Assembly (NCBI RefSeq): GCF_020073745.1
Contig: NZ_JAIRAU010000047.1
Coordinates: 93,990-157,989, forward strand
DNA: 64,000 nt
From: Nannocystis pusilla
GTDB lineage: Bacteria; Myxococcota_A; Polyangia; Nannocystales; Nannocystaceae
Reading direction: 5' to 3'
The position numbers and the translations under genes are program-made. Of the stretch, positions 5,621 to 63,970 are shown piece by piece (position 1 is the stretch's first letter; every line of letters starts with the position of its first letter). A model generated the notes under the pieces. That model was not told the origin of the DNA. It saw only the letters and a list, made by a program, of their open reading frames with translations, and did no database searches.

Positions 5621-5665
5621 ACAGGGCCGTGAGGGCATGTCCCCGCGGCCCTGTTCGTTTAAACA
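5621..5665 (+). terminator. stem-loop (stem cagggccg/cggccctg) with a GGGCATGTCCCC motif in the loop, followed by a T-rich tract
   Basis: An inverted repeat at 5621-5629 and 5645-5654 sits directly after the ACAD stop and is followed by tcgtttaaacattcat. Confidence 0.5.
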
Positions 5666-6001
5666 TTCATCGCCCATCCGCGTCGAGCATGCCTGCTGGC
5701 GAACGGAGACACGGCCGCGGCGCGGGAGGTGGTCGCCCGGGCGTGGGCGGCCTTCTTCACGTCCGGAGCCGGGTCAGGTCACGGAGCGCGACACCGAGCG
5801 CGACGTCGACCGCGGCGCCGTCGATTGGCACGGGTGGACCCCACCGTATCAGCGCGCCTTGGCGACAGTGGTTTGCGCTGCGAAAAAATTGTTCGCGCCT
5901 GGTGAATTGAAAAGCGTGGTGACTCGACTTCGCCGGCGAGGGTCGACGACTGCCGCTCGCGGCCGCCACCCCGCGACACCTCTCACCCCAAGAGCAACAC
6001 G

Positions 6002-7087
6002 ATGCATTCGCCCGGACTTCCTATCCACCTCCCGCTCCACATCGCCCTCTGCGCCCTCGCGGCGCTCGCTACCCCCGCCTGTGACGCCGACGAGGCCGCC
6101 GACGGTGAAATCCCCTCCTTCGACGTCGACGTGCGAGGTGCCCTGGTCCGCTGTGACAACGGCACCTTCGACCTCGAGCAAATGAACGCGACGCTGCGCG
6201 CCTACCCCGAGCTCGGCGAGATCCTCGGCCTCGAGCGCGTGGCCGGCTGCGAGGACGCCCCGAGCTACCTCGCGGGCCTGTCGGCGCACATCGAGAGCTT
6301 CCCGTCGCAGGAGCCGGCGCCCGCGGACGCGGAGTTTCGAATCGCACAGGCGGAGGCCAGCAACCTCACCACCAACGGCGTCCTCCGGCTGAGCAGCGTC
6401 GGCTGCACCGGCGTGCTGATCCACGAGCGCGCGCTGGTCACGGCCGCCCACTGCGTGGCCGCGCTGGCCCCGGCGTCCGGCGAGAAGAACTTTTGGGTCG
6501 ACAACTTCGACATCGACAACTTCGGCGGCGGCAGCTACGTCGGGACGGTACGCGTGAACGTCCACCCCGACTACGCCGGGACCGGCAGCAGCTACGTCGG
6601 CGACGACGGCGACGACATCGCGGTGGTCAAGCTGACCAGCGGCAGCTTCGGCTTCCCCGCCGAGGACCGCCACCGGATCTACACCGGCGCCATGAGCACG
6701 ATCGGCACGATGCGCCTGTACGGTCAGGGCGTCACCTCGCACACGGGCGGCGGCGCCGGCACGCTCCGGCGCATGGTCTACCTGCCCAACTGGAACGGGC
6801 CGGAGCACTTCCTGATGGACGCGGAGACCAGCCGCATGTGCAAGGGCGACTCCGGAGGGCCGGTGATGGACGTGCTCCCCGACGGGGTCACCCGGGTGGT
6901 CGCCGGGCTGGCGACGTCGATCGAGATCGGCAGCCCCGGCGACATGTGCGCGACCACCGGCGGGAAGCAGCGCGCGGTTCGCCTGCAGAACAAGGTCCGC
7001 TGGATCGACGACATGATCGGCGGGACCGACAGCGATGACTGCACACCGCTGGTCATGGACGGGTGGTCCTACGAGCGCTGCTGGTGA
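6002..7087 (+). CDS. secreted trypsin-like serine protease (S1 family), lipoprotein signal
   Basis: The catalytic triad context is present: TAAHC (His), DIAVVKL (Asp) and GDSGGP (Ser). The N-terminal signal carries a Cys. Confidence 0.8.
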   Translation: MHSPGLPIHLPLHIALCALAALATPACDADEAADGEIPSFDVDVRGALVRCDNGTFDLEQMNATLRAYPELGEILGLERVAGCEDAPSYLAGLSAHIESFPSQEPAPADAEFRIAQAEASNLTTNGVLRLSSVGCTGVLIHERALVTAAHCVAALAPASGEKNFWVDNFDIDNFGGGSYVGTVRVNVHPDYAGTGSSYVGDDGDDIAVVKLTSGSFGFPAEDRHRIYTGAMSTIGTMRLYGQGVTSHTGGGAGTLRRMVYLPNWNGPEHFLMDAETSRMCKGDSGGPVMDVLPDGVTRVVAGLATSIEIGSPGDMCATTGGKQRAVRLQNKVRWIDDMIGGTDSDDCTPLVMDGWSYERCW

Positions 7088-7130
7088 GCGCGCTGCACAC
7101 CGTCGTCTCGAGCATGGCGTCTTGCTCGCA

Positions 7131-7480
7131 GCGACGACCACCTCCGCCTCACGACAAGCGGGGCCGCCACACTCTTCTGGGGCGGCCTCGCTACGGCGGC
7201 GTGGGACGCAGCGACGACCACCTCTGCCTCACGACAAGCGGGGCCGCCACACTCTTCTGGGGCGGCCTCGCGGCGGCGGCGTGGGACGCAGCGAGGGGCC
7301 CCATGCCTGACGCGCAGACGCGGGATGATTCTTCGGACATGCCCCATCGACCACTCCGCGTCGAGCATCTGGCATGGCAGGTCTCGCGTCGCGAGGGACC
7401 CGCGCCGCCGCCGCGAGGCCGCCCCTCCCCGCTCCCCACGGCCCCGCGTCCTCCCGCACGCGATCCTCGACGCCTCATTC
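7131..7480. repeat. dispersed repeat copy: 2 x 80-bp tandem units followed by a ~190-bp tail that is ~90% identical to 42483-42690
   Basis: The unit gcgacgaccacctc[ct]gcctcacgacaagcggggccgccacactcttctggggcggcctcgc is present twice. The tail contains GGACATGCCCCATCGACCACTCCGCGTCGAGCATCTGGCATGGCAGGTCTCGCG, as the 42.5 kb copy does. Confidence 0.85.
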
Positions 7481-7523
7481 CTTGCCCGGAGCGGTGACGC
7501 TCCGCGACTGCTCCGAGAAAGCG

Positions 7524-7557
7524 GCATGACCGCCAGGACATGTCCCGGCGGTCATGC
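7524..7557. terminator. 34-bp near-perfect palindrome centred on GGACATGTCC (gcatgaccgcc-a-GGACATGTCC-c-ggcggtcatgc)
   Basis: The 11-bp arms are perfect reverse complements. The site lies between the convergent protease and PBP genes and is probably a bidirectional terminator or protein-binding site. Confidence 0.55.
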
Positions 7558-7574: not shown

Positions 7575-9140
7575 TCAGGGAACCGCGGCCCACGCGCCGG
7601 TGGTGTCGGGGCACGCGGGCGTGAACACGGCCGTCTTCACCCACTTCTCGCCGGACTCGTCGAGCGTGTGGGCCGCGAGCGGGCTGCACACCTCGCCCTT
7701 GGCGTCGAAGTCGAGCGGCCCGGTGATGCCCGTGAGGTCGACGGACTTGCCGGTGGCGAACGCCGACAGCGCGGCGGGCACGAACATCTTCGGACCCGCG
7801 CCGAAGTCGACCGGCACGCCCGACTTGTCGGACAGCTTCTCCATCGCGTCGGCGACGCGCAGGCCGACGACGATGTCGCCGGACTTCACCGCGGCCATGC
7901 CGATCAGCGACGCCATCGTCGCGTCGTAGGCGAGGCCGGCCTCGGGCGCCAGCGACGACTCGCCGAGGCGGGTGCGCAGCTTGGCGAGCTGCGGGGTGTC
8001 GAGGTCCGGGGTGATGGCGACGACGACGCCGGCGAGCTCCTTGTCCTTGAGCGCCGCCACCGCGGGCATCGCCCGCTGCGGCACGTAGATCTTCTGCGGC
8101 AGCGGGGCGCCGGTCGTCTTGTAGTACTTGATGATGTCGGCGACCTCGGAGCGGCCGAGCAGGACCAACATCTGCGGCGTGTCGAAGCTCGTGAGCGCCG
8201 CGTCGAGCTTGGCCTTCGCGCCCTTGGTGGCGTCGTCGAGCCCGCGGTACGAGGCGATGAACTGGCTGCCGGGGACCTGGGGGATCTGGCTGGGACCGCC
8301 GGTCTCCTCGGTCGCCACGGCGTTGTAGAGGCCGAGCCCGTACGCGTCCTCCGCCAGCAGCAGCACCGCGTTCGCGTCGGGCACGCCCGTGAAGTCTTCG
8401 CCGATCCGGGCGCCGAGCGCCGGGCCCTGGTACTTGGCGCCGGCCATCGCCTGGAAGACCAGGTTGGCCGAGGTGTCGAGCTCGGTCATGTCGGCCGTGA
8501 CCATCGGCCCCATCGTGAACGCGTTGACGCCGGGGGCGAACGTCACCTGGTCGACCACCGCCGTGAATTCGACGTCGTCGACCGGGCCGATGAGCACCGG
8601 GATGGCCAGCGTGTCGCCGAGGTGCCGGCCGGCCGACGTCGCCGACGCGACCTCGCTCTTGGTGTCGCAGACCACCAGCGCGATCTTGTCGCCGTTCGGC
8701 AGCTCGCCGGAGCCGTTGAACTCCTCGACCGCCGCTCGCACGCCCTTCTCCATCGCCTCGCCGAGCGCCGCGTCGGCGCCGGTCTTGGGCAGCATCACGC
8801 CGATGAACGCGACGTCGTCGCTGACCTCGCCGCCGGGGTAGATCGGGGCGCCGCACTCGTCGGTCTCGGTCGACGCGCACTCGCGCGGCGCGCTCGAGGT
8901 GGCGCAGATGAACGCCTCGCCGAGGCCTGCGCACTGCGAGTTGGCGTCGCAGCCTTTCTCGCGGACCTGGCAGGTGTTGGCCGCGCAGTACATCGGCTTG
9001 TTGTCGTCGAAGAAGGCCGCGCAGTCGGCGTCCTCGTAGCACTCGGTGAAGTCGAGCGTCGCCGAGCACGCGCCCGCGATCACCCCGAGGACGCCGCAGA
9101 CAGAGATCCGGGTCAGCATATGCGAGAAGACAGACGACAT
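7575..9140 (-). CDS. periplasmic substrate-binding protein, type-I PBP (Leu/Ile/Val-binding-like), lipoprotein with Cys-rich N-terminal region
   Basis: There is a signal plus lipobox (VCGVLGVIAGAC) and an LIVBP-like fold (IGVMLPKTGADAALGEAMEKGVRAAVEEFN...KIALVVCDTKSE). No ABC permease or ATPase is adjacent. Confidence 0.7.
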   Translation of the reverse strand: MSSVFSHMLTRISVCGVLGVIAGACSATLDFTECYEDADCAAFFDDNKPMYCAANTCQVREKGCDANSQCAGLGEAFICATSSAPRECASTETDECGAPIYPGGEVSDDVAFIGVMLPKTGADAALGEAMEKGVRAAVEEFNGSGELPNGDKIALVVCDTKSEVASATSAGRHLGDTLAIPVLIGPVDDVEFTAVVDQVTFAPGVNAFTMGPMVTADMTELDTSANLVFQAMAGAKYQGPALGARIGEDFTGVPDANAVLLLAEDAYGLGLYNAVATEETGGPSQIPQVPGSQFIASYRGLDDATKGAKAKLDAALTSFDTPQMLVLLGRSEVADIIKYYKTTGAPLPQKIYVPQRAMPAVAALKDKELAGVVVAITPDLDTPQLAKLRTRLGESSLAPEAGLAYDATMASLIGMAAVKSGDIVVGLRVADAMEKLSDKSGVPVDFGAGPKMFVPAALSAFATGKSVDLTGITGPLDFDAKGEVCSPLAAHTLDESGEKWVKTAVFTPACPDTTGAWAAVP

Positions 9141-20210: not shown

Positions 20211-20510
20211 AGGTCGTCGCCCCACATGTCCCGAGAGACAGCCCGACCCCTGTGGCGGGCGGCGCCCCACGCCCTGTCTCTTCGGACATCCCAGATCGCC
20301 CGCGCGGAGCGCCGGGCCCATCGTCACGCGCGTCGCCTGTCTTTCTGGACATGTCCTCGCGCGCCGTACGGGCGGCGCCTGCGCGGCTCCTCGCGGCTCG
20401 CCCGGCTCCTTCGTCGCCGCGCCGGCGGCCACCCCCCTGCCCTCCGCCCTCGCGCGGCGCGACCGGTTGACCGGCACCGCGGGCGGTCCACGTTTGCAGC
20501 ACGACGACCG

Positions 20511-22134: not shown

Positions 22135-22137
22135 CGC

Positions 22138-23508
22138 CTACTCATCGGACTCTTCGGACATGTCCGATTCGCCATCCGGGCCGAGCTCGAGGTCGATCAC
22201 GATCGGGTTGTGATCCGACACCAGCTTGCCCTCGGCGACCGGCCGCTCGATGACCTGCGGCGCGCGCGGGCGCAGCCCCTTGCCGGCGAACCAGTCGACG
22301 CGCAGCGGCACCCGCCCGCCCCACGGCGCCAGCCGGCGCTCGAGGTACGTCCACATCACCCGGCGCATCGCCTTCGGCATGTAGTCGAGCGCCTTGCGGA
22401 AGATCTCGGGGTCGTAGATGTCGTAGTAGATGGTCCCGCGGGTGAAGTCGTTGAAGCCGTCGATCTCGAACCCGCCCTCGCGCATCGCCGCGAACACCGC
22501 CCGCTCGAAGTGCTCCTCCGGCTTCATGTACTGGGCCGCCATGCCCTCGATGCCGAAGCGTGTCAGCTTGTAGAAGAAGTTGTAGGCCAGGCCGCGGCCG
22601 CTGCTCAGGTCGTACGTGTTGGTGTTGAGGTCGCCGCCGAGGAGCATGCGCTCGCCGCCGAACTCGCGCAGGCGCGCCACGATCTCGCGGATGTGGCGGG
22701 CCCGGTCGCGCGGGCCGGCGAACGGGTCGAGGTGGACCAGCGCGACCGTCAGCGGCCCGTCGGGCAGCAGCAGCTCGCACAGCAGCGCGCGCTTGTTGCC
22801 GATCCGCTTCTCCGTCGCGTGGAACTTGTCGCGCCGCTCGTGCAGCTCAACCGCCTCGAAGCGCAGCACCGGGAAGCGGGTCAGCAGGGCGCAGCCGTGC
22901 ATCGCCTTGGTGTTCGGCACCCCGTGGCCACGCTCGCCGCGGTCGCCCTCGACCAGCACGATGTGATAGTTGGCGAACACGTAGCCCATGCCGAGCGCGT
23001 GGGCCAGCTCCTTGGGCACGTTGCGGTTGCCCGAGCGGCCCATGCCGATGTCGACCTCGGTCAGCAGCAGCAGATCGGCCGCGCTCAGCTCGGGGTCGGA
23101 GGTCAGGAGCGTGTGGAGGCCCTCGAAGCGCTTCCCGCGCTCCACGTTCCAGGCGACCGCGCGGACGGTCCCCGGCCGCCGCGGCGTCAGCGAGTGGCCG
23201 AGCGTCGGCTCCAGATCCCACTCGAAGCCGCGGAGGACCCGCTCCAGCTGCGGGCGGATCGTGCGGAACACCGGGTCTCGCTCCAGGCGCCGGCGCGTGC
23301 GGATCCGGGCGATGTGGGCCAGCGCGTCGGTGAAGTCGTGGTCGAGCTGCGAGCGGAGCGGGAGGGGACCTGGCTCGGAGACCAGGTTAGGATAGGCGAA
23401 GAGATTCGTCGGCACGCGCCTCCCCGGGTCGGACAGATCGGTACCAGATCGCCGGGGCGCTGTCCTGGTCTGCCCCCGCGCGCCTCGGGCAATTTCGATC
23501 TCGCTCAC
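22138..23508 (-). CDS. endonuclease/exonuclease/phosphatase (EEP) family protein
   Basis: An EEP core (AWNVERG...LLLLTEVD...LVHLDPF...GGDLNTNTYD...SDHNPIVIDL) is present. The acidic C-terminal tail ...SDMSEESDE contains a GGACATGTCC copy. Confidence 0.7.
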   Translation of the reverse strand: MSEIEIARGARGQTRTAPRRSGTDLSDPGRRVPTNLFAYPNLVSEPGPLPLRSQLDHDFTDALAHIARIRTRRRLERDPVFRTIRPQLERVLRGFEWDLEPTLGHSLTPRRPGTVRAVAWNVERGKRFEGLHTLLTSDPELSAADLLLLTEVDIGMGRSGNRNVPKELAHALGMGYVFANYHIVLVEGDRGERGHGVPNTKAMHGCALLTRFPVLRFEAVELHERRDKFHATEKRIGNKRALLCELLLPDGPLTVALVHLDPFAGPRDRARHIREIVARLREFGGERMLLGGDLNTNTYDLSSGRGLAYNFFYKLTRFGIEGMAAQYMKPEEHFERAVFAAMREGGFEIDGFNDFTRGTIYYDIYDPEIFRKALDYMPKAMRRVMWTYLERRLAPWGGRVPLRVDWFAGKGLRPRAPQVIERPVAEGKLVSDHNPIVIDLELGPDGESDMSEESDE

Positions 23509-30295: not shown

Positions 30296-30348
30296 CGTAT
30301 CACTCAGGACATGTTCACAAGACCATGTCTCGAAGGACAGCACATCCC

Positions 30349-32177: not shown

Positions 32178-32372
32178 CGAGCGCCACCCAGCAGGCAGCC
32201 GAGGACCGCGTGCCGCCGCCGCTCGACCTGCACTCCCGGACATGTCCCCGACGACATGCCATGCCCTCACGCGGCACGAGCGCGCGACCCACATGCACTC
32301 CTGGACATGTCCCCGACGACATGTCCCCTCGCGCCGCTCGCCCGCGAACCCCCCAGCCCCCGGCCCCGCGCC

Positions 32373-48741: not shown

Positions 48742-48939
48742 CGGCCTCGTCTCCCCGCGCACACTGTAGTGCAGGGTCGCGCCGCGCGAGCCAGGACGCG
48801 CGCCCGCGTCACCGCGGACCTGCATCACGACGGGGGTCGTCGACCCACAGCCGGCTCTGCGCGTGCCCCGCGATCGCGTGACGATCGAAACTGACCTGTC
48901 CCTTCAGACACATGCGAAGAATGCGAGCGCCGAGCACTC

Positions 48940-53284: not shown

Positions 53285-53400
53285 GCGCGCTCGGGTGAGC
53301 GCGAGACCGCGTGATCCGCCGGCCTTGAAGAGCATGTCCTGGACGACATGCTCGATCGGTCCTCGCCGCCGCCGGCTTCGACTCCGGCGCGCCGCCGGGC

Positions 53401-54978: not shown

Positions 54979-55189
54979 ATCCCCGCTGTCTCCTTTGCAT
55001 CGGACGCGCCGCCGCCTGAGGCGCGGTCTGCGTCGCGGTGCATCGTCCGCCGCGACGCCGACGAACGCCATCCGCGATGGCTCGTAGGACACCTCTGACG
55101 ATCCTCGTATCCATGGCCGCGCGGCGCGGATCCGTGCTCGATGCGCGACCTACACGCTGCAATCGACGCCGAAGCCCGCGAGCGCGGCC

Positions 55190-56482
55190 TCAGGTCGGCG
55201 TGAGGCGGAACATGCCCGACTGGCTGGCCGGCCGCAGCTTGGCCAGCAGCGGCTCGACCTCGCGGCTCAGCGCCTGCTCGTCGGCCTTGCCGATCGAGGC
55301 GCCGCACGACAGCAGCGCGAACGCGACGTAGTCGTACATCATCTCGCGCACCAGCACCTCGGGCTCGCCGCCGAGGGTCCGGCAGGTGTTGGTCGCGTTG
55401 CGGTCGATCATCTGCCCGTTGAACCCGCCGTGCTCGAACGGACCTGCCCCGCGGAACAGGTCGTCGTAGGACCCGCGGGCGAACCCCGCCATCGCGTTGC
55501 GGAACACGGTGCCGCGGCCGGCCATGTCGGCGCGCTGGTGGATCGCCCGCAGCGCCGTGTTGGCCAGCTCGACCGCCTCGGCCGCCCCGCCGCGCAGCCG
55601 CGGCGGCAGGATGATCACGTGCTGCGACTGCGTCAGCTGGAACAGCATCTCGGTGACCTGGAACTCGCCGAGCCCGGTCGAGCGGCCCAGCTGCTCGACG
55701 CTCTGCACCCCGTCGAGCGCGTTCCACAGCGGCAGCAGCTCGGTCCCCGGGGCCACCGCGCCGGGCCGCTTCTTCGGGATGTACTGCGACGACGGGATCC
55801 ACGGGCGGAAGTAGCGGATCCCGTCGAGCCGCACGATCAGGTGCATCAGCAGCGACGTCGCGCTGTGGACCTGGCGGAACGGCAGGCGCGACTCCTCGTA
55901 GCCGTCGAGGAACGCGTACAGCCCGTCGTCGGCCATCAGCACCGCGAACACGACCTCCTCGACCTGGCGCCCGAGCAGGCTCAGCACCTGCTCCTCGGTC
56001 AGCGCCCCCATCGCCACCGCGGCCACGCCGAAGCGCTCGCCGGTCTTGCGCGCGCGCACCAGCACGTCGCCCAGGACGTCCTCGTGGACCGCGCCGAAGC
56101 GGTAGGCGATGTTGCCGAGCAGCTCGTCGCCGGCGTCGGACTGCACGCCGACGATCGACCCGTGCTCGAAGAACAGGCTGCGCGAGTGCTCCGAGTCCTG
56201 CACCACCAGCTCGCCGCGCCAGCCGACCTGCGCGAGCAGGGCGATCACGTCGGCCATCGCGCCTGGCCCCGTGATCTCGCCGGCGATCCGGACCACCGCG
56301 CCGTCCTCGCGATCGCGGCGACCGTCGGCGCCGACGTAGCGCATGAACACGAGGTGGCGCGGGGACGGCATGATGCGGAACGCGCCCTCACGGGTGCGCA
56401 TCCGCTGCGTCGCCACCTCGCCCAAAGGATGCGCCGCGCCCGTCCCGTCGATCCAGACCAGCTCGTCCTGCGCGTGCTTCAT
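55190..56482 (-). CDS. DUF4388-domain protein (myxobacterial PATAN-like regulator) - tentative
   Basis: The N-terminal ~100 aa resemble the DUF4388 pattern (LGEVATQ…EGAFRIMPSPRHLVF…G). The rest has no recognisable motifs. Confidence 0.45.
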   Translation of the reverse strand: MKHAQDELVWIDGTGAAHPLGEVATQRMRTREGAFRIMPSPRHLVFMRYVGADGRRDREDGAVVRIAGEITGPGAMADVIALLAQVGWRGELVVQDSEHSRSLFFEHGSIVGVQSDAGDELLGNIAYRFGAVHEDVLGDVLVRARKTGERFGVAAVAMGALTEEQVLSLLGRQVEEVVFAVLMADDGLYAFLDGYEESRLPFRQVHSATSLLMHLIVRLDGIRYFRPWIPSSQYIPKKRPGAVAPGTELLPLWNALDGVQSVEQLGRSTGLGEFQVTEMLFQLTQSQHVIILPPRLRGGAAEAVELANTALRAIHQRADMAGRGTVFRNAMAGFARGSYDDLFRGAGPFEHGGFNGQMIDRNATNTCRTLGGEPEVLVREMMYDYVAFALLSCGASIGKADEQALSREVEPLLAKLRPASQSGMFRLTPT

Positions 56483-56796
56483 GCTCGGGGCCGCACTGTA
56501 ACACCTGTCCGTTCGGTTCTCACCCCGCCGTACGCGGCCCGCGGTCCGCTGACCCCGCCCGATGATGACCGCGAAGCCTGCTCTTTCGGTCAGCCGGTCC
56601 GGTCCTGCACTAGCGCATATCCGCCGCATCGGGACGAACCGGCGCGGCGGAAAACAGGCGCGGGAGCTCGAAATGCCGTCGCGGCACGGGTGCCGCGACC
56701 GCGTCCTCGCCGGTCCTCCGCGACGGCGTCACACCGCGGCCGCGGGCCACACGAGCGCCCGAAGGGCCCAGCGCGGGCGTTCGGGCGGGATCGCGC

Positions 56797-58248
56797 TCAG
56801 CCCTCGGGCAGCACCACGAACGCGAACTCGCCGGGGGTCGCGGTCCCGAGCGTGTCGACGGACAGGAAGTAGGTGCCCGGCTGCAGCGGCCCCTCGAGCT
56901 CGCGGTCGCCCCGTTTCACGCACGTGCCGGCGTCGGTCAGCGTCATCAAGTGGAGGTCGACGTCGACGTTGCCCTGGTCGAACACCAGCGCCCGGATCGT
57001 CGTCGGCGCGTCGATCGTCAGCTCGTACACGAACTCGGGCCCGTCCGCGCCCATCGCCATGCACGCGCCCTGGTAGGCGTCGATCGCGTCGCTGGGGCTG
57101 TCGGCGGTGCTGCGCATGTCGGCGAACGGCAGGCCCGGGATCACGATCGGCTCCTCGAGCGTGCCGGCGCCCAGCAGCGTCGGCGCGGTCGCGTCGGGCG
57201 GCGGACCGCCGTCCACGATCACCGTCTTGCCGCGGGCGAGCGCCTCGAGCGTCACGAGGTTGCGGCGGTTGTAGCCGCTGGTGATGCCGCTGAAGCCGAA
57301 CGCGCACGGGGTCGGCGTCGCCATGTCGTCCGCGAGCGCGACGCTGAGGTCGATGCCGTCGGCCGCGAGCCCGGCGTTGGGCAGGCCCGCGAGCGCGAGG
57401 TTGAGGTCGATCAGCGGGATCTTGCGGCCCTGCGCGAGGGCGCGGATGAACGCGTTGTAGCGCGGCACGTAGACATCGATCCCGGCCGGCATCGTGCGCG
57501 CCGGGATGGTCGACAGGATCGGCACCGTGCCGCCGGCGATCAGCGCGTCGACCACGGCGACGAGGTTGTCGGCGAACGTGAACACGCCCTCGGGCGGCGG
57601 CACCTCGAGCTCGGTGGTGCCGAGCAGCACGACCGCGAAGCGCGGGCTGATCTCGGTCACCTCGTTGGCCAGCGGCGACGGGGCGCCGGCCAGGATGTCG
57701 GCCCCGGTCCAGCCCGGCATCGCCGCCAGGCTGACGCGGCTGAACGACGTCGCCCCCATCCCGGCCGCGCTGGCGTTGAAGAAGTCGACCGCGGGCTGCA
57801 GCGCCGGCGGCAGCTCGACGATCTGCACCGCGTCGGCCAGGCAGTTCAAGAAATTGCTGCTGGCGGTGTGCGTCCCGCCGACCTTGGCGAACACGCCGTC
57901 GGTCTTGACCCCGTTGGCCGCGATCGCGGTCATCGCCGCCGCCACGTCGGCCGTGATCGGCGAGTGCACCTCGGTGAACGGGTAGTACTCGCCGAGCACC
58001 GTCGGCTCGCCCGTCGTCGTCGTCTCGGTCTCACCTGTCTCCGAGGTCAGGTTCTCGCCCGTCGTCGTCGTCGTCGTCGTCTCGCTCGTGTCGGTCGCCG
58101 GCTCCGGCCCGGTGGTCGGGTCGGTCGACGTCGGCATCGCCGTCGCCGAGGTCGTGGCGAGCGTCCCGCTGGTCTCGCCGTCGAGCGGCGCTCCCCCTGC
58201 GCACCCGACCGCCAGCGCGGCCATCGGTCCGATAATCCATCGCGTCAT
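56797..58248 (-). CDS. hypothetical secreted lipoprotein with Thr-rich linker
   Basis: A lipobox (ALAVGCAGG) and a TSETTTTTTTGENLTSETGETETTTTG linker are present. Its promoter region carries tandem palindromes and GACATGTCC copies. Confidence 0.5.
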   Translation of the reverse strand: MTRWIIGPMAALAVGCAGGAPLDGETSGTLATTSATAMPTSTDPTTGPEPATDTSETTTTTTTGENLTSETGETETTTTGEPTVLGEYYPFTEVHSPITADVAAAMTAIAANGVKTDGVFAKVGGTHTASSNFLNCLADAVQIVELPPALQPAVDFFNASAAGMGATSFSRVSLAAMPGWTGADILAGAPSPLANEVTEISPRFAVVLLGTTELEVPPPEGVFTFADNLVAVVDALIAGGTVPILSTIPARTMPAGIDVYVPRYNAFIRALAQGRKIPLIDLNLALAGLPNAGLAADGIDLSVALADDMATPTPCAFGFSGITSGYNRRNLVTLEALARGKTVIVDGGPPPDATAPTLLGAGTLEEPIVIPGLPFADMRSTADSPSDAIDAYQGACMAMGADGPEFVYELTIDAPTTIRALVFDQGNVDVDLHLMTLTDAGTCVKRGDRELEGPLQPGTYFLSVDTLGTATPGEFAFVVLPEG

Positions 58249-58517
58249 GGCCCGGCAGGGTACACCATGTCGGCCGCCGCACCGCAGCGCCCGAGAGCGC
58301 GCCCGCGACGGCCCGAGGCGCCCGGCGAACGCGGGCCTGCCCCGCCCCGCCGCTCCGCGCGCGCCGGCTTTCACGCCGCACAGCCCGCTTTTTGGGCGTC
58401 CGCGCGCGTCTTCGCAACCGTGGCACAACCTGTCCTCGCGGACATCCACCTGCTGAATCGGGGCCGCACGGACGCCGCGCATGCAGGCGGACCTGCGCCC
58501 GCGATCTCAGCACCCGA

Positions 58518-58597
58518 GGCGCGACAATTGGCGCGCCTACCTGGCCTGAGAGACATGTCCACGTCGACCGCGCCCGAGGCGCGACAATTGTCGCGCC
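58518..58597. promoter_or_regulatory. two tandem 60-bp units, each carrying a 20-bp palindrome GGCGCGACAATTG(G/T)CGCGCC plus a GAGAGACATGTCC motif (operator-like)
   Basis: Direct repeat 58513-58572 / 58573-58632. The second palindrome is perfect. It lies ~250 bp upstream of the lipoprotein gene start at 58248. Confidence 0.55.
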
Positions 58598-58734
58598 TGC
58601 CTGACCCGAGAGACATGTCCAGGTCGAGCGCCGAGCGCATGTCCGTCGAGACACCCATGCCCCGCGCCGGAGCCGCGCAGAATGACATGTCCATGAAGAC
58701 ATGTCCATGAAGCCATCTCGGCGATGCCAGGCGC

Positions 58735-60102
58735 TCAATCGCCGCGGCCGGCGCGGCCGAGGAAGAAGCCGGCGAGCCCGCCGGTCACGCCCCACGACGT
58801 CCCGCGCGGGATCTCCGGCACCGCCGTCTCGAGCCGCTGCCAGTTGACGGCCGCGAACACCCGCAGGTGCTGCAGGAGCACCCAGTTGAGGCCCGCGGAC
58901 GCGGTCGTGACCCCGTTGCCGGCCAGGTCGCGGGCGCCGACGCGGAAGCGCTCGAAGCGGGCCGACAGCTCGACCGCGCTGTCGCGGACCCGCCGGCTCG
59001 CCAGCCGCGGCAGCAGCGTCGCCGGGTCCTTCTCCTGCCCCGTCACCACCGCCCCGAGCTGCGCGTAGCCGCCGGCGCCGATGAGCTGCGGCAGCGGATC
59101 GCCGGGCGTGAACGGGTCGCCGTCGGTGTCGCGCTCGCGCGAGTCGTACGTGTAGAAGAACTCGCCGCGGGCCGACAGGAAGCGCCAGAACAGCCCGCCG
59201 CCGGCCGTGAAGCGCCGCGACGCCCCGCTGCTCGGCAGCCCGTGGAAGAAGTCGAAGCCGAACGCCGTCGTCACCGTCGGCGTGAAGCCGTTGGTCTTGT
59301 GGTACGCGAACACCGACGCCACCAGGATCAGCTTCGGCGCGCGCCGCAGCCCCGCCAGCGGGCTCAGTTGCACCTTGCCGGCGAACGCGATCTTCGTGTT
59401 GTTGGCCTCGCGGTTCTGGCCGATGCCGGAGAACACCGCCGCCGTCACCTCGGCCCAGCGCCAGAAGTCGTACGCCACCTCGAGCCCGACCTGCCGCCCC
59501 GGCGTGGCCGCCAGCAGCGACAGCGGCGCCCGCGGCAGCTCGTCGACCAGGTCGGGCGCGTTGAAGCGGAGCCCGAACGGCGCCTTGAACTGGCCCACGC
59601 GCAGCCGCAGCCGCGGCGCCGCCGCCCACGCCACGAACGCGTCGAACAGCTGCGGCCCCTTGGCCTGCGCCGCCTCGATCGTCACGAACGCCGTCACCGG
59701 CCCGACGTTCACCCCGCCGCCGATCCGCGCCCCCGCCAGGCTGATGTTGCTGTAGCCCTCGCGCGGCGCCGAGTACCAGGTCGCGTCGGTGCGGATCCAC
59801 CCGTACGGGAACAGCTCGAAGCGCTCTCGCAGCGGTCGCTTCGCGGATGGCTGATCGGCCATGCTCTTCGGGACATCCGTACCGGACGTGTCTGTTCGGA
59901 CATGCTCGTCCGGGCCTCCGGCCTCGTCGCCGCCCGGGCTCGACGCATCAATGTCCGTGCGGAGAGGTTCATTGGCACCTGTCTCGGCGGACATGTCTCC
60001 ACCGCCCTGCCCCGCCGGCCGCTCGGGCACCGGCACGCTGGTCACCTCCTCGGCCGGCGCCGTCGCCAGCGCCGCCCCCATGACGATCGTCGTCGACAGC
60101 AC
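58735..60102 (-). CDS. outer-membrane beta-barrel, phosphate-selective-porin (OprO/P)-like
   Basis: Alternating amphipathic beta-strand pattern, Gly/aromatic-rich (…FKAPFGLRFNAPDLV…WVLLQHLRVFAAVNWQRL). An alternative start at 59862 would put the GGACAT motifs in the 5' UTR. Confidence 0.5.
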   Translation of the reverse strand: MLSTTIVMGAALATAPAEEVTSVPVPERPAGQGGGDMSAETGANEPLRTDIDASSPGGDEAGGPDEHVRTDTSGTDVPKSMADQPSAKRPLRERFELFPYGWIRTDATWYSAPREGYSNISLAGARIGGGVNVGPVTAFVTIEAAQAKGPQLFDAFVAWAAAPRLRLRVGQFKAPFGLRFNAPDLVDELPRAPLSLLAATPGRQVGLEVAYDFWRWAEVTAAVFSGIGQNREANNTKIAFAGKVQLSPLAGLRRAPKLILVASVFAYHKTNGFTPTVTTAFGFDFFHGLPSSGASRRFTAGGGLFWRFLSARGEFFYTYDSRERDTDGDPFTPGDPLPQLIGAGGYAQLGAVVTGQEKDPATLLPRLASRRVRDSAVELSARFERFRVGARDLAGNGVTTASAGLNWVLLQHLRVFAAVNWQRLETAVPEIPRGTSWGVTGGLAGFFLGRAGRGD

Positions 60103-60109
60103 GGGGCGC

Positions 60110-61090
60110 TCAACAGGCCGGCATGACCACGATCTGCTGGGTGTCGCGGGCCGACACGAAGATCCGGCTGACGCCGTCGAACGCGATCCCGCGCGGCTCC
60201 CAGTCGCCCTGGGCGACCGTCGTGATCGCGCCCTCGGCGGTCACGCGGTAGACGTGGCCGGCGCTGTTGGCGGTGTCGTACGACAAGACCAGCAGCGCCC
60301 CGTCGGGCGTCGTCTCCATCAGGTCGAGCGACTCGAACTCGTCCGACACCAGCGTCAGCGCCGGCGTGGCGGCCGTGAGGTCGACCTTGAACACCTGCCG
60401 CTGCGCCTGGTCGCCGACGAACAGCGTGTCGCCGAGCACCGCGATGCCCACCGGCTTGCTGAGCCCTCCGAGCAGCATCGTCTCGACGCCGGCGACCGGG
60501 TCGACGCCGGCGATCCAGCCGGTGTACACGTCGTCGGCGTCGCGCGAGTACGTGGACACCCACAGCAGCCCGCGCGCGTCGTCGTAATCGAGCCCGACCC
60601 GCCGCCACTCGTCGTTCACGCCCGCGATCGCCTCCGGCGCGCCGCCGGGCGCGACCTGGAAGATCGCCCCGAGCCCCGGCATGCCGAACCCGAAGCGCGG
60701 CACGAACAGCGTGCCGTCGGCCGCGAAGTCGAGGTCGCCGAGGCCGTCCGAGCCGGGGTCGTTCGAGGGGTTGGCGATCTCCGCGAACACCGCGATCGTC
60801 CCGTCCTCGTCGCGCACCAGCACGCGGTTGTTGTCGTCGTCGGCGATGTACAGCCGCTGCTCGTCGGCGCGGTAGTGGAGCCCGTTGGGCTCGGCCTGCA
60901 CGTCGATGCGGTACTGCGCGAACGTCTCGCACTGCGCCGGCTCCCCGGTCGTCGGCGCGTCGCCGGTCGTGGCCGTGCCCGGGTCCGTCGCGGCCTCGGT
61001 CGTCGCCGTCTCGCTCTCGCTCTCCGTCGCCAGCTCCGGCACACAGCCGGCGGCCAGCGCCAGCAGGGCAAAATTCACGCGTCTCGTCAT
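60110..61090 (-). CDS. SMP-30/gluconolactonase/LRE-like (NHL/SGL beta-propeller) lipoprotein
   Basis: A lipobox (LLALAAGC), a Thr-rich linker and repeated …LYIADDDNNRVLV… / …LFVGDQAQRQVFKV… blades are present. Confidence 0.6.
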   Translation of the reverse strand: MTRRVNFALLALAAGCVPELATESESETATTEAATDPGTATTGDAPTTGEPAQCETFAQYRIDVQAEPNGLHYRADEQRLYIADDDNNRVLVRDEDGTIAVFAEIANPSNDPGSDGLGDLDFAADGTLFVPRFGFGMPGLGAIFQVAPGGAPEAIAGVNDEWRRVGLDYDDARGLLWVSTYSRDADDVYTGWIAGVDPVAGVETMLLGGLSKPVGIAVLGDTLFVGDQAQRQVFKVDLTAATPALTLVSDEFESLDLMETTPDGALLVLSYDTANSAGHVYRVTAEGAITTVAQGDWEPRGIAFDGVSRIFVSARDTQQIVVMPAC

Positions 61091-61141
61091 GGCTGCTCCA
61101 AAGGTCAGATCGCCGTCGTCACTCATCGCCTGCCTCGCAGG

Positions 61142-62254
61142 TCATGCGGCCGCGAGCTCGGCGACGCGGTCGCCGCAGCCGCGCACGTCGTAGCCGAGCG
61201 ACGACAGCTCGCGCCGGAACGCCGCCGAGGTCATCGCATCGAGGAAGCGCAGCACCCGGGGGTCCGCCAGCAGCGCCCGCGGGATCGCCAGGTCGTAGCG
61301 CTCCTCGGCCAGCGGCACGAACTCGAGCCCGAACGCGAGCGCCGCGTCGCGCGTGGCCACCCCGACCTCGCCCGCCCCGCTGGCGATCGCCTGCGCGACC
61401 TCGAGGTGCCCGCTCGCCCGCACCGGCGCCGCGTCGGCCAGCGTCGCCGGCAGACCGGCGCGCTGCAGCTCGCGCTCGAGCAGCCGCCGCGCGCCCGAAC
61501 CGGCCTCGCGCGCGACCAGCCGCAGCCCGCGGCGCCCGAGGTCGCCGGCGCCGCGGACCTTCCGCGGATTGCCCGGCGCGAGCAGGAGCCCCGCCTCCCA
61601 CCGCGCCAGCGTGATCAGCACCAGCGCCGCGCCGGTGTGCTTGCGGACGTCGGGCACGTTGGCCTCGCCGGTGCGCCCGTCGACCAGGTGCACCCCCGCC
61701 ACGTGCGTGTGCTCGGCGGCCAGCGCCGCCAGTGCCTGCGTGCTCGAGCGCGGCAGCCACACGCAGCGCCCGGCCCCGGCGGCGCGGATGCTCAGCCGAT
61801 CGGCGAGCACCCCGAGGGCGGCAGCGCAGCCCATTACCACCAAGTTGCCCTGCGCCTCGACCCGCGGTCGCACCAGCTCGACCTCGACCGGTCCGCGCCG
61901 CCCGGGCGCCCGCGCCACGATCGCGTCGGCCGCCAGCCGCATCGCCTCGCCGGTCAGCGGATACGCCACCCAGCGCCCGCCGACGTGGGCCAGGGCCACC
62001 CGCCCCGCCGGCACCGCCGACGCCGGCTCGGCCTCGATCCGCAGCTCGCCGGTCGGGACCGCGAACAGATCCTCGACGCGACAGTCCAGCGCCCGCGCCA
62101 GCCGCAGCGCCACGTCGACCGCCGGCGTCGCCCGCCCGGCCTCGATCGCCCCCACGCTCTGGCGCGACAGGTTCGCCGCCTCCGCCAGCTCGACCTGCGA
62201 CATCCCGCAGGCCTCTCGCGCCGCCCGCACCCGGTTGGGCTCGTTTTCGATCAT
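61142..62254 (-). CDS. XRE-family HTH transcriptional regulator fused to a periplasmic-binding-protein-like (PBP2) domain
   Basis: The N-terminal RAAREACGMSQVELAEAANLSRQSVGAIEAG is a canonical XRE HTH. The C-terminal ~250 aa is PBP-like. Confidence 0.7.
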   Translation of the reverse strand: MIENEPNRVRAAREACGMSQVELAEAANLSRQSVGAIEAGRATPAVDVALRLARALDCRVEDLFAVPTGELRIEAEPASAVPAGRVALAHVGGRWVAYPLTGEAMRLAADAIVARAPGRRGPVEVELVRPRVEAQGNLVVMGCAAALGVLADRLSIRAAGAGRCVWLPRSSTQALAALAAEHTHVAGVHLVDGRTGEANVPDVRKHTGAALVLITLARWEAGLLLAPGNPRKVRGAGDLGRRGLRLVAREAGSGARRLLERELQRAGLPATLADAAPVRASGHLEVAQAIASGAGEVGVATRDAALAFGLEFVPLAEERYDLAIPRALLADPRVLRFLDAMTSAAFRRELSSLGYDVRGCGDRVAELAAA

Positions 62255-62373
62255 GACGCGCATTCTTTCCCAGATGAAAAGCAAACTTGTCAAGCGGCTT
62301 CGCCAAACCTCGCCCTGCGCCCGTTCAGCGGCGCCGGCTGCCCCGGTCCGGCGATGCGCGTAGGCTCGCGCGC

Positions 62374-63120
62374 ATGTCCGACGCCGAGTTCCTCACCGCC
62401 GAGTGGCGCGACCTCGTCATGCTGAACTTCGCCGTCGACCCGGCCGTGCTCGCCCCCCACGTCCCGCCCGGCACCGAGCTCGATCTGTTCGACGGCGTCG
62501 CCTGCGTCAGCCTGGTCGGCTTCATGTTCCTGCGCACGCGGTTGCTCGGCTGCCCGGTCCCGTGGCACCGCGACTTCGAGGAGCTCAACCTGCGCTTCTA
62601 CGTCCGCCGGCCCGGGCGGCCCGACGAGCCCCACGTCGGCGCCGACGGCCACAAGCGCGGGGTCGCCTTCTTCAAGGAGATCGTCCCGCGCGCCGCGGTC
62701 GCCATGGTCGCGCGCCGGCTCTACGGCGAGCGCTACGAGGCATGGCCGATGAGACATGTTCGAAAGAACACCTCCCAGGGCGCCGGCGAGGTCGCCTACG
62801 GGGCCCGCGTCGGCGGGCGCTGGCACGAGCTCGGCCTGGCCTTCCGCGGCGAGCCGGCCGCGCCTGCCCCTGGCAGCGAGGCCGAATTCATCGCCGAGCA
62901 CTATTGGGGCTACGTCGCCGGCCCCGGCGGTCCGACCACCGAGTACCGCGTCGAGCACCCGCCCTGGCGGGTCTGGACCGGCGTCGATCCGCGGCTGCGC
63001 CTCGACGCCGCGGCCCTCTACGGCCCGGACCTCGCCCCCGCGCTCGCCGGCCCGCCGCGCTCGGCGTTCCTCGCCGAGGGCTCCGCGGTCACCGTCTACC
63101 GCGGTCGCCGCCTGACCTGA
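62374..63120 (+). CDS. DUF2071 (YqjF-like) family protein
   Basis: WRDLVMLNFAVDPAVLAPHVPPGTELD…VSLVGFMFL… matches the conserved DUF2071 N-terminus. Confidence 0.55.
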   Translation: MSDAEFLTAEWRDLVMLNFAVDPAVLAPHVPPGTELDLFDGVACVSLVGFMFLRTRLLGCPVPWHRDFEELNLRFYVRRPGRPDEPHVGADGHKRGVAFFKEIVPRAAVAMVARRLYGERYEAWPMRHVRKNTSQGAGEVAYGARVGGRWHELGLAFRGEPAAPAPGSEAEFIAEHYWGYVAGPGGPTTEYRVEHPPWRVWTGVDPRLRLDAAALYGPDLAPALAGPPRSAFLAEGSAVTVYRGRRLT

Positions 63121-63163
63121 AGGCCAGGTCCCCTCGAGCCGAGGTGTTCACCGTCAACGAGCG

Positions 63164-63451
63164 CTAGCCCTCGAAGTCGGCGCCGATCACCACCGTCCAC
63201 TTCCGCACGGTCCAGCGCCGCACCAGCCCCTCGCGGACGTACGGGTCGGCGCGCGCGAACGCCTCCGCCGCGGCGCCGTCGGGGCCGCGGAACACCAGCA
63301 GCGCCTCGTCGGCCGGCTCGGCCAGCGCGCCGCCGAGGCGCAGCTCGCCGCGCTCCACGGCGGCGCGGGCCAGGGCCAGGTGTTCCGGCCGCAGCGGCGT
63401 GCGGCGCTCGAGGTAGTCGTCGACGAGTTCGTAGCGGAGCACGAAGTACAT
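63164..63451 (-). CDS. YciI-like (Dabb fold) protein
   Basis: MYFVLRYELVDDYLERRTPLRPEHLA…GELRLGGAL is the YCII signature. The protein is ~95 aa. Confidence 0.7.
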   Translation of the reverse strand: MYFVLRYELVDDYLERRTPLRPEHLALARAAVERGELRLGGALAEPADEALLVFRGPDGAAAEAFARADPYVREGLVRRWTVRKWTVVIGADFEG

Positions 63452-63970
63452 CGCGCGCGAGCATACGCCGGACGCGGGCGTCCGGGATGTCCGCGAGCCA
63501 TGTCCCTCGGATCCCCGCTCCACAAACGCGCCGTCTCTTCCCGGCCCCGGACAGATGACCGCAGCGCCGGGGTCGTCGGCCACCGCCGACTGTCACGACC
63601 CTCGATCGCCCGGTCCCCAAATGACATTTGCGGCGCCCCGGATCCGTCGGCGAGCATTGTCCACTATATACATTATGAGAGCGCAGCCGCGCCCGATATG
63701 CACGCCGCCGCGCCCGCGGACAGGCGGGGCCCGAGAGCGTCGCGCGCGGACGACATCGCCGCACCCGGCCGAGCAATCATCATGGGTTCAATGATCCGAA
63801 TCGCCGGAACTTGCCCCATGAGATCAACGCGCTCACGGCAACCACCTGTCAGCGGCCGTGGGTGAAGTGAAGCAAGGTGCGCCGCGCTGCGCCAAAGTTG
63901 GTGCATCGGCATCGATACTCGTTGACACCCGGTTCGCCGCCCCCGTAACGTGGCAGGGTTGGAGGTGTGG

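Follow-up and report, generated by a model that had tools for sequence, protein, structure and literature searches.

A palindromic repeat family at gene 3' ends in Nannocystis and its closest relatives

The self-complementary 10-mer GGACATGTCC was identified as the unit of a palindromic repeat family of the Nannocystis lineage that marks gene 3' ends and that, on balance, probably acts as a transcript 3'-end hairpin, either terminator-like or mRNA-protecting. This reading draws on the abundance and phasing of the unit, its location relative to genes, its capacity to form hairpins and its distribution among genomes.

Results

Abundance of the palindrome

Exact copies of GGACATGTCC occur at six sites in the window, i.e. 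the whole 64,000-nt stretch of DNA analysed, where 0.05 were expected, and none of 100 shuffles reached this number. With up to one mismatch allowed, 22 sites were counted against 1.79 expected and a shuffle maximum of 5, and the 8-mer core GACATGTC is present at 14 sites compared with ~1.2-2.8 expected under Markov models. The over-representation of the palindrome stated in a preliminary description of this DNA was thereby confirmed, as was its mostly intergenic position (~15 of the 22 sites, by GC3/codon-based gene calls); coding sequence is also enriched, approximately 6-fold. The density of the family is about 1 copy per 4.5 kb, and its extrapolated number is a few thousand copies per genome. 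Coordinates reported previously were corrected at 32228, 32293 and 32306 (now 32238, 32303 and 32317) and at 591 (now 588). Several copies classified there as exact or one-mismatch carry two or three mismatches, and some one-mismatch sites had been missed (Table 1). The copies at 7335 and 42573 (GGACATGCCC) are part of a separate large repeat (7240-7476 versus 42478-42713; 92% identical). Use of ATG-TCC as a Met-Ser start, also proposed earlier, applies only to a few degenerate matches (37689, 50836, 62370), which are probably unrelated to the family.

Table 1. Copies of the palindrome and associated genes in the 64,000-nt window. Energies and z-scores refer to predicted folds.
Position	Strand	Feature	Details
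574, 7536, 20347, 22156, 32238, 32303		exact copies of GGACATGTCC	
588, 20222, 20284, 53330/53344, 58635, 59871/59884/59898, 62370, 62752, 63496		copies listed earlier that carry 2-3 mismatches	
15383, 33645, 37022, 37689, 38901		one-mismatch sites absent from the earlier list	coding sequence or start codon
1-919	minus	mtaB	Pfam domains UPF0004 and Radical_SAM
574..611	.	three phased units GGACATGTCC tttt CCACATGTCC ccga GAACAGGTCC	within mtaB coding linker
3790-5598	plus	acyl-CoA dehydrogenase gene	stop 35 nt before GGGCATGTCC of hairpin 5621..5654
5621..5654	+	apex-type hairpin, GGGCATGTCC tipping locus-specific arms CAGGGCCG...CGGCCCTG	-28.4 kcal/mol, z -6.5
7524..7557	-	apex-type hairpin, GGACATGTCC tipping GCATGACCGCC/GGCGGTCATGC arms	-31.3 kcal/mol, z -6.0
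7575-9140	minus	periplasmic-binding-protein gene	stop 30 nt before GGACATGTCC of hairpin 7524..7557
20222..20356	+	scattered copies 3' of the stop of gene 18639-20210	CCACATGTCC (20222); CGCCCTGTCT-cttc-GGACATCCCA (20270-20293); TCGCCTGTCT-ttct-GGACATGTCC (20333-20356)
22156..22165	-	single exact copy	last codons of, or just past, Exo_endo_phos-family gene 22138-23415 (minus)
28409-30295		lysyl-oxidase-like gene	stop 12 nt before units 30307..30344
30307..30344	+	three phased units GGACATGTTC acaa GACCATGTCT cgaa GGACAGCACA	
32238..32261	.	two-unit hairpin GGACATGTCC ccga CGACATGCCA	-10 kcal/mol; convergent spacer between 31503-32177 (plus) and mqnA-like 32373-33197 (minus)
32303..32326	.	two-unit hairpin GGACATGTCC ccga CGACATGTCC	-15.8 kcal/mol, z -4.6; 47 nt past mqnA-like stop
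53330..53353	.	co-varied two-unit hairpin GAGCATGTCC tgga CGACATGCTC	two compensatory positions; -19.9 kcal/mol; convergent spacer, MacB/FtsX permease gene 50840-53284 (plus) versus 53401-54954 (minus)
58551..58720	-	cluster 3' of porin-like gene 58735-60102 (minus)	-17.2 kcal/mol; two AGACATGTCC copies within a 60-nt x2 repeat (58551, 58611); GCGCATGTCC-gtcg-AGACACCCAT (58635-58658); three-unit array TGACATGTCC atga AGACATGTCC atga AGCCATCTCG (58683-58720)
59871..59998	-	two degenerate arrays, 59871-59907 and 59947-59998	between gene 60110-61090 (minus) and probable porin-like gene start

A 14-nt register

The repeating unit comprises 14 nt, namely the 10-mer and a free 4-nt spacer. In ~1 Mb of Nannocystis DNA, neighbouring copies outside seed pairs were spaced by 14 nt (104 cases), 28 nt (36) or 42 nt (10), and never by 13 or 15 nt. 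Phased arrays contain up to seven units, which are direct repeats and do not alternate in orientation. The clustering already noted is therefore tighter than had been appreciated, since clustered copies lie exactly 14 nt apart, and the supposed inverted pair at 574/591 is actually a direct, 14-nt-phased pair (574/588). Conservation is limited to the 10-mer, which stays the same between species while spacers (loops) and flanks drift; the flank logo contains no conserved head. Conservation declines symmetrically away from the CATG centre, with one-base deviations concentrated at the first and last positions.

Adjacent spacers were identical in seven of 70 cases (1.45 expected), and array copy number varies between orthologous spacers; slippage of the 14-nt unit probably causes arrays to grow and shrink. 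In N. bainbridge, the spacer orthologous to 32303..32326 (locus L058) harbours a six-unit array, an intact four-unit array is found where the window has 59947-59998, and the orthologue of the Exo_endo_phos-family gene ends with the two-unit array GGACATGCCC cttt GGACATGCCC. The spacer of that species orthologous to 58551..58720 (locus L095) contains several, differently arranged copies. Variants at positions 1 and 10 track the direction of replication (GC skew) and not that of transcription, and their polarity is the same for all units of one array, N. punicea being an exception to the replication rule. This replication-linked polarity points to processes at the DNA level as well.

Location relative to genes

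Locations were counted in ~1 Mb of Nannocystis DNA by means of GC3/codon-score gene calls, which are crude and assign about one third of the arrays to "coding" sequence. The number of arrays per kb was 3.98 in convergent spacers, 1.22 in co-directional spacers, 0.32 in divergent (promoter-only) spacers and 0.18 in coding sequence. Density in divergent spacers was thus near the coding level, which itself lies ~20-fold below that of convergent spacers. A gene 3' end is faced by 231 of the 257 intergenic arrays, and 18 face 5' ends only. The distance from stop codon to array has a median of 29 nt downstream with a broad tail, and in co-directional spacers 58 of 119 arrays lie within the first fifth after the stop. 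The 3'-end pattern recurs in source-annotated loci that had not been chosen by motif (L126, L127 and L121). Within mtaB, the units at 574..611 encode ..FSGTCGKGHVPE.. in a variable linker of the protein, and at the corresponding position both N. pusilla Na p29 (L126, 10323/10337) and N. punicea (L127) also have copies.

This pattern argues strongly against a transcription-factor operator, regulon site or promoter element, one of the two readings offered initially, which is virtually untenable. An operator would fit the palindromic nature of the 10-mer, the AT-rich flanks of some copies and the position of a few copies upstream of genes (30307, 58551-58720), but operators should be concentrated upstream in promoter regions, and here convergent spacers are ~12-fold denser than divergent ones. 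Moreover, extrapolation gives thousands of copies per genome, and the surroundings of the copies revealed no sigma-70-like promoters. The XRE-PBP and sigma-54 EBP genes put forward as regulators have no particular link to the motif.

Hairpins and signals in RNA

Hairpins of two forms are predicted, with folding energies of -10 to -31 kcal/mol: either neighbouring copies pair with each other, or a single copy tips locus-specific inverted repeats (apex type). The hairpins described earlier at 5621-5654 and 7524-7557 belong to the latter and were borne out by folding (Table 1). Conservation between N. pusilla Na p29 and N. punicea extends to three apex-type hairpins; the window covers the positions of two of these and contains both. 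The hairpin at 5621..5654 has orthologues in L126 (5260) and L127 (5279) with two compensatory pairs, and in its variant the sense strand has G3 (G.U). That at 7524..7557, which is followed by GCTTTC, is conserved in L126 (5024) and L127 (5083) with one compensatory pair. Between adjacent copies, 82 compensatory double changes were counted compared with 58.6 +/- 6.8 in shuffles, and one of 1000 shuffles reached 82. In three-unit arrays, complementarity of the outer units and of the spacers did not exceed that of shuffled controls.

On the sense strand of the upstream gene, 50 transitions keep G.U pairs and 23 make A.C mismatches (p = 0.002); the sense strand is not G+T-rich (0.49). Stable tetraloops (GNRA, UNCG, CUUG) were found 13 times in sense and twice in antisense orientation. 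The G.U-keeping bias and the sense-strand tetraloops suggest a function in RNA; these signals comprise 73 and 15 events, respectively, and could stem in part from transcription-associated mutation bias.

The arrays are not followed by a U-tract: T-enrichment is limited to the first two positions, and at least five of the following 8 nt are T in 1.3% of arrays. Canonical hairpin-plus-T-tract terminators occur in the window at chance level (5 versus 4.2 and 7 versus 4.3), and a terminator scan of the window flagged no array. At gathering thresholds Rfam gave no match in the window.

Lineage distribution

To determine the distribution of the family, 185,579 species genomes were scanned for two phased copies (pattern GACATGTCC-N5-GACATGTCC). 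Among the matches listed (120 loci), 105 were from Nannocystis, six from one Nannocystaceae MAG and nine from scattered other genomes, the last number being consistent with chance. As these 120 of the loci analysed were ascertained via a tandem pair, the share of tandem arrays in the data is inflated. At loci syntenic around mtaB, the motif was present in relatives with 81% and 70% MtaB identity and absent from those with 59-68%. By these matches and loci, the family is confined to Nannocystis and its closest relatives.

Discussion

Proposed role and alternatives

The best reading of the GGACATGTCC family is that of a new, lineage-specific family of 3'-end hairpins, terminator-like or RNA-stabilising. 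Two neighbouring units would pair to form a stem of 8-10 bp with a loop of 4-6 nt or, alternatively, a single unit would tip locus-specific inverted repeats to give a stem-loop. The hairpin would form within the upstream gene's transcript, some tens of nucleotides past the stop codon, and one hairpin between convergent genes could serve both strands. Mycobacterial RNA polymerase is reported to require a U-tract for termination in vitro (PMC3993855); given that requirement and the lack of a U-tract here, the hairpins may not terminate on their own. They would most likely act as a terminator-like element or, as the missing U-tract makes more probable, as a barrier that, following Rho-type termination, sets the mRNA 3' end and shields it. 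We infer such a role in termination or stabilisation, and also some factor or copying process by which the sequence stays uniform. A genus-wide 10-mer accompanied by free spacers, flanks and outer stems is not explained by structure alone. A tentative extension, to which we give a low probability, is that the 10-mer serves as the recognition code of a putative lineage-specific gene-end factor, a protein that would bind the GGACAUGUCC duplex as RNA or as DNA. If so, termination or 3'-end formation would be factor-dependent, with phased 14-nt units replacing the hairpin-plus-U-tract, and the replichore-linked polarity would hint at an extra single-stranded-DNA step that creates or maintains copies.

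Alternatively, although we doubt it, the units might be phased double-stranded DNA sites at gene 3' ends for an abundant, putative lineage-specific dimeric protein (a nucleoid-associated, topology or roadblock factor), with adjacent dimers binding cooperatively every 14 bp and hairpins arising as a by-product of the palindromic site. Persistence of the 10-mer across species amid drifting spacers and flanks, and the symmetric fall-off of conservation expected of a dimer site, would suit such a protein. So would the very strict register, RNA hairpins in general accepting varied loop lengths, as well as the lack of co-variation of the outer units of triples and the fact that tandem and apex contexts have only primary sequence and duplex in common. 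Binding of duplex DNA predicts neither the G.U-keeping nor the tetraloop bias of the sense strand, however, and a DNA-binding dimer has no need of the locus-specific inverted repeats that apex copies carry and conserve between species; adjacent copies also co-vary beyond shuffled controls.

An improbable alternative is a REP/REPIN-like mobile element, i.e. a hairpin that a RAYT-type (IS200/IS605-like) tyrosine transposase would recognise in single-stranded DNA and copy, with selfish spread into tolerated 3' spacers, which agrees with location, hairpin, copy number and lineage specificity and with an end-position polarity that follows the replichore, as for a process on the lagging-strand template. 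Against it, N. punicea breaks the polarity rule, positions are stable across three species, flanks are not conserved and lack a GTAG-like head, the units form direct, phased repeats, and spacers are unconserved, so that a 24-nt unit is not copied as such; in addition, 15 genes with arrays on either side were inspected by eye over their first 60 residues, and none resembled a small HUH transposase. By analogy with Neisseria DUS and Haemophilus USS, a signal that accumulates through biased uptake with recombination and is tolerated chiefly at terminator positions might be considered, since the motif is short (9-10 nt), invariant, lineage-specific, unrelated in its flanks and often paired as hairpins after genes. 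This is hardly credible: DUS and USS densities are higher than ~1 per 4.5 kb, a palindromic unit in strict 14-nt arrays is foreign to uptake sequences, and natural competence of Nannocystis is without record in the literature searched. Very improbable, too, is a HIP1-like palindrome iterated through methyltransferase and mismatch-repair bias at an internal site such as ACATGT or GACATGTC. The motif is indeed short, GC-flanked, hyper-abundant, lineage-specific and enriched in coding sequence too, and its one-base deviations gather at the end positions as reported for HIP1 (PMC4390886). Repair bias, however, predicts neither strict phasing nor a density ~20-fold higher in 3' spacers than in coding sequence, and HIP1 itself is reported from within and between ORFs (PMC5861425).

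Comparison with known systems

Like canonical intrinsic (Rho-independent) terminators, the family provides a predicted GC-rich hairpin soon after the stop codon, but the U-tract of ~7-9 nt that should directly follow is lacking. With the REP/BIME elements of Enterobacteria and Pseudomonas it shares an extragenic, transcribed location at 3' ends and in convergent spacers rather than promoter-only ones, hairpins, clustered arrays, variable copy number and species or genus specificity. REPs stabilise upstream mRNA. The earlier suggestion of a REP-like family was apt in these respects and in its lineage restriction. The family nevertheless falls outside the REP definition because a GTAG-type head and alternating orientation are lacking: REPs are imperfect palindromes of ~35 nt (~20-40 nt by definition) with a conserved stem sequence and a conserved tetranucleotide head, arranged in alternating orientation with defined linkers and linked to RAYT transposases, whereas the GGACATGTCC unit is a perfect, headless 10-nt palindrome in direct phased repeats with free loops. 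Inverted pairs of DUS are known as terminators, and the family resembles DUS/USS pairs in its invariant motif (9-12 nt), unrelated flanks and post-gene hairpins; uptake sequences differ in being non-palindromic, unphased, widespread in coding sequence and driven by a known process, biased DNA uptake, whereas no tie between the GGACATGTCC motif and competence was seen. HIP1 of cyanobacteria (GCGATCGC) is likewise a hyper-abundant, short, lineage-specific palindrome deviating at outer positions. It is described as lying within and between ORFs with kilobase-scale periodicity and cognate methyltransferases, in contrast to the 14-nt register and the low coding density seen here.

TRIT, the Tuberculosis Rho-independent terminator motif of Mycobacterium, has 147 copies in M. 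tuberculosis, and its authors inferred a sequence-reading factor of unknown identity (Gardner et al. 2011, PMC3152330). Judged from the description in that paper, the two sequences are unrelated. TRIT is a longer, single hairpin centred narrowly ~8 nt before the stop, whereas the GGACATGTCC family lies at a median of +29 nt and is built from a 10-nt palindrome that is either arrayed in a 14-nt phase or placed at the tip of a hairpin, with an extrapolated copy number roughly at least ten times higher. Both are lineage-restricted, sequence-conserved, multicopy palindromic stem-loops that are tightly associated with gene termini, are largely bidirectional and reside in high-GC genomes poor in canonical terminators.

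Abundance and unit structure

The self-complementary 10-mer GGACATGTCC (hereafter, the motif) occurs at six exact sites in the window compared to 0.05 expected from dinucleotide-preserving shuffles, and at 22 sites if up to one mismatch is allowed (1.79 expected). Its 8-mer core GACATGTC is present at 14 sites, as opposed to approximately 1.2 to 2.8 predicted by Markov models of the window. The over-representation claimed in the preliminary description was thus confirmed, and so was the mostly intergenic position of the copies (about 15 of the 22 sites, according to home-made calls from a simple codon-score gene caller that used the window itself for training). Its list of copies had to be amended: some coordinates were about 10 nt off (correct positions: 32238, 32303 and 32317), and several copies listed as exact or one-mismatch have two to three mismatches. 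The two GGACATGCCC copies, which sit in an unrelated large repeat, were excluded from the family. In three samples not selected for the motif, the density of GACATGTC was about one per 4.4–4.6 kb, with 14 copies in the 64 kb of the window and five in 21 kb at each of the N. pusilla Na p29 and N. punicea loci (L126 and L127). Extrapolated, rather than counted, this would amount to a few thousand copies per genome of 12–13 Mb.

A species-representative genome collection (596 Gb) was scanned for GACATGTCC-N5-GACATGTCC, i.e. two phased copies, which yielded at least 120 loci. When the 120 loci listed were printed in 14-nt frames, arrays of two to seven units became apparent, a unit being the motif plus a 4-nt spacer, while the flanks were unrelated between loci. 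Outside the seed pairs, neighbouring copies were spaced by 14 nt (n = 104), 28 nt (n = 36) or 42 nt (n = 10), and spacings of 13 or 15 nt did not occur in these loci. Conservation peaks at the central CATG (0.87–0.92) and declines via G2/C9 and A3/T8 to G1/C10 (approximately 0.6); spacers are nearly free apart from a weak Y-T-N-R preference. Identity between adjacent spacers was seen in seven of 70 cases (1.45 expected), an excess which indicates that recent duplication of 14-nt units has enlarged some arrays. Most spacers, unlike the 10-mers, have diverged.

Taxonomic range

Among the matches listed, 105 of 120 stem from Nannocystis (pusilla, exedens, punicea, bainbridge, radixulma, RBIL2 and MAGs) and six from one Nannocystaceae MAG. 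The remaining nine are scattered over unrelated phyla, close to what chance alone would produce in 596 Gb with 18 bases specified. The MtaB fragment encoded in the window matches, at 100% identity, a protein assigned by NCBI to Nannocystis pusilla; its identity to MtaB of both N. pusilla Na p29 and N. punicea is 90%. The motif is present in 14-nt register in mtaB-syntenic loci of relatives with 81% and 70% MtaB identity, and absent from those of relatives with 68%, 61% and 59% identity. Thus, as far as the matches listed are concerned, the family is confined to Nannocystis and its nearest relatives.

Location relative to genes

Location was determined with the same home-made gene caller throughout in the window plus the 120 listed loci (approximately 1.0 Mb, 813 genes), the latter having been ascertained through a tandem pair. 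Arrays were most frequent in convergent spacers (3.98 per kb), followed by co-directional spacers (1.22), divergent spacers (0.32) and coding sequence (0.18), and omission of the seed arrays left this ranking unaltered. A gene 3' end is faced by 231 of the 257 intergenic arrays (median distance to the stop codon, 29 nt), and 5' ends alone are faced by 18. Of the 119 arrays in co-directional spacers, 58 are located within the first fifth after the upstream stop. The same pattern was seen in L126, L127 and a further locus, L121, all with the source's own gene calls and free of motif-based selection. Such a distribution is the hallmark of a 3'-end element and argues strongly against the promoter or regulon sites envisaged initially. 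Some copies lie within coding sequence, such as a run of three units in the mtaB linker conserved across three species.

Predicted hairpins

Because the 10-mer is its own reverse complement, two units in register pair perfectly into a hairpin, the stem reaching up to 10 bp and the spacer forming a loop of 4 nt; predicted folds of such pairs in the window range from -10 to -20 kcal/mol. Compensatory double changes between adjacent units, as in GGACATGCTT-ttaa-AAGCATGTCC or the 53330 pair of the window, numbered 82 compared to 58.6 ± 6.8 for shuffled partners. The outer units of triples and their spacers did not co-vary. General formation of long hairpins by three-unit arrays via outer-unit or spacer complementarity was also considered and dismissed, as these arrays were no different from shuffled controls.

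In a second architecture, a single copy is placed at the tip of locus-specific inverted repeats (apex-type hairpin). The two larger hairpins noted previously are of this type and follow the convergent acyl-CoA dehydrogenase and periplasmic-binding-protein (PBP) genes. Both are also found in the orthologous spacer of N. pusilla Na p29 and N. punicea, where the alignments contain two compensatory pairs for one hairpin and one for the other. A third conserved hairpin follows a lactamase-fold gene. Apex-type hairpins had appeared rare in a gapless-arm test. This was overturned once a 1-nt offset was allowed and loci not selected for the motif were included; in such loci about half of the exact copies are apex-type.

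Features of the window and related loci (coordinates without locus name refer to the window)
Feature	Position	Predicted fold (kcal/mol)	Description
Exact copies of GGACATGTCC	574, 7536, 20347, 22156, 32238, 32303
Phased copies in mtaB coding linker	574-611; L126 10323-10346; L127 10323-10346		Between UPF0004 and radical-SAM domains; encode ..TC..GHVP..; conserved in three Nannocystis genomes
Apex-type hairpin	5621-5654	-28	35 nt after acyl-CoA dehydrogenase stop
Insertion	5655-7523		Trypsin-like protease gene (6002-7087) and repeats between the two terminator-like hairpins
Repeat region	7127-7476		80 nt x2.1 tandem repeat ahead of 7240-7476; GGACATGCCC copy at 7335
Large repeat	7240-7476; 42478-42713		92% identical
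Apex-type hairpin	7524-7557	-31	30 nt after PBP gene stop
4.2-kb segment	~28170-32370		Lysyl-oxidase-like gene and two hypothetical secreted proteins, one with MYXO-CTERM-like tail near 31400-31460
Non-coding block (1.3 kb)	41576-42904		No codon-phase GC signal; tandem repeats of 42 nt x5.7, 60 nt x5.7 and 93 nt x1.8; 3' part is the second copy of the large repeat, with GGACATGCCC copy at 42573
Tandem repeat	58513-58631	-41 (composite)	60 nt x2; each unit has a separate perfect palindrome GCGCGACAATTGTCGCGC, then a AGACATGTCC copy; the AGACATGTCC copies can pair over 60 nt, enclosing one GCGCGACAATTGTCGCGC palindrome
Degenerate array	59947-59998		Intact four-unit array in N. bainbridge

Turnover between species

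In orthologous spacers the motif is kept and its arrangement is not. Beside mqnA, N. bainbridge carries six units versus two pairs in the window, and 3' of a porin-like gene both have several copies at differing positions. At the Exo_endo_phos gene, a two-unit array follows the stop in N. bainbridge versus one copy within the last codons in the window. The spacer between the acyl-CoA dehydrogenase and PBP genes contains the motif in four lineages, in three as apex hairpins and in the fourth as a phased array. Only 28–330 nt lie between these two genes in N. pusilla Na p29 and N. punicea, and likewise in three relatives further removed; the window therefore carries an insertion between the two hairpins. 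The 4.2-kb segment is missing from the syntenic N. bainbridge locus (L058 1769-1921), where the genes on either side converge directly and a six-unit array lies between them. For the mtaB copies, a 42-nt insertion was rejected: the protein alignment shows a variable linker with no 14-residue insertion. In the four closest homologues, including those of N. pusilla Na p29 and N. punicea, the linker is only four residues longer than in more distant ones.

Signals at the RNA and DNA level

Arrays in co-directional spacers were read on the sense strand of the upstream gene, which leaves small counts. G.U pairing is retained by 50 transitions (A3>G, C10>U, C9>U, C4>U), compared to 23 complementary ones that would give A.C mismatches (p = 0.002). 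The sense strand of these spacers is not rich in G+T (0.49), and the bias was absent when the same sites were oriented by GC skew. Loops of two-unit hairpins matching GNRA, UNCG or CUUG were found 13 times in sense and twice in antisense orientation, again in small numbers. Both signals are modest; they are predicted by selection on an RNA hairpin in the transcript of the upstream gene, and neither would be expected for a site acting as duplex DNA.

Transversions at either end of the motif show strand polarity. In L001-L120, and especially among those of N. pusilla contig_2, xGACATGTCC favours the C-rich strand at about 3:1 (85/42 versus 19/56; Fisher p = 9e-9), and the polarity switches from one replichore to the other on the 11.9-Mb N. 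pusilla contig; N. punicea loci deviate from the rule. Relative to the orientation of the upstream gene these variants were unbiased (28 versus 33 transversions). Polar transversions that flip with the replichore suggest an additional, replication-tied process at the DNA level, possibly template switching at palindromes. GC skew of the window is negative over almost the entire 64 kb (cumulative -2.35), hence its plus strand corresponds to the C-rich (lagging-sequence) one of a replichore. Among the eight end-position variants in the window, seven have the xGACATGTCC form on that strand.

Against a classical terminator, no U-tract follows the arrays, and intrinsic termination by mycobacterial RNA polymerase requires one (PMC3993855). 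Neither canonical hairpin-plus-T-tract terminators nor sigma-70-like promoters exceeded chance frequency in window positions 20001-40000 and 44001-64000, so that standard scans for such signals are uninformative in this genome. Taken together, the lacking U-tract, the chance-level terminators and the mycobacterial precedent speak less for an autonomous terminator than for a hairpin that would define or stabilise 3' ends, possibly in concert with Rho or a different factor.

Discussion

Myxobacteria with genomes of 12–13 Mb and 70% GC have few recognisable terminators, and operon ends are consequently hard to annotate. Nannocystis is a natural-product producer, and a single 10-mer flagging the 3' ends of a large proportion of genes would serve as a practical landmark for its annotation and engineering. 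Strict 14-nt phasing and replication-linked polarity are unusual and could inform on the origin and spread of short palindromes.

No Rfam family was detected in the window at gathering thresholds. Literature searches for the motif in bacteria matched only p53 response-element papers and unrelated primers, those for palindromic repeats of Nannocystis or myxobacteria returned nothing relevant, and a HIP survey paper does not mention the motif.

We classify the motif family as an extragenic 3'-end palindromic hairpin family, set apart from others of that kind by a perfect 10-nt palindrome in strict 14-nt register or at hairpin tips. Of the REP-like character proposed at the outset, location and clustered arrays hold, as in REP/BIME elements, but the head sequence and alternating orientation that define the latter are lacking. 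Uptake-sequence terminators and HIP1 each have individual traits in common with the family. In behaviour, TRIT comes closest: it too is a palindromic hairpin of conserved sequence that is restricted to one lineage, largely bidirectional and placed at gene termini, and the high-GC genome that carries it is likewise poor in canonical terminators. Structure alone does not demand one sequence, and genus-wide uniformity implies either a process of copying or drive or a putative motif-reading factor of the kind suggested for mycobacterial TRIT (PMC3152330). Beside TRIT, Nannocystis would be a second high-GC lineage with a sequence-conserved palindromic hairpin at gene ends, which makes it more pressing to ask whether such motifs are read by unknown factors.
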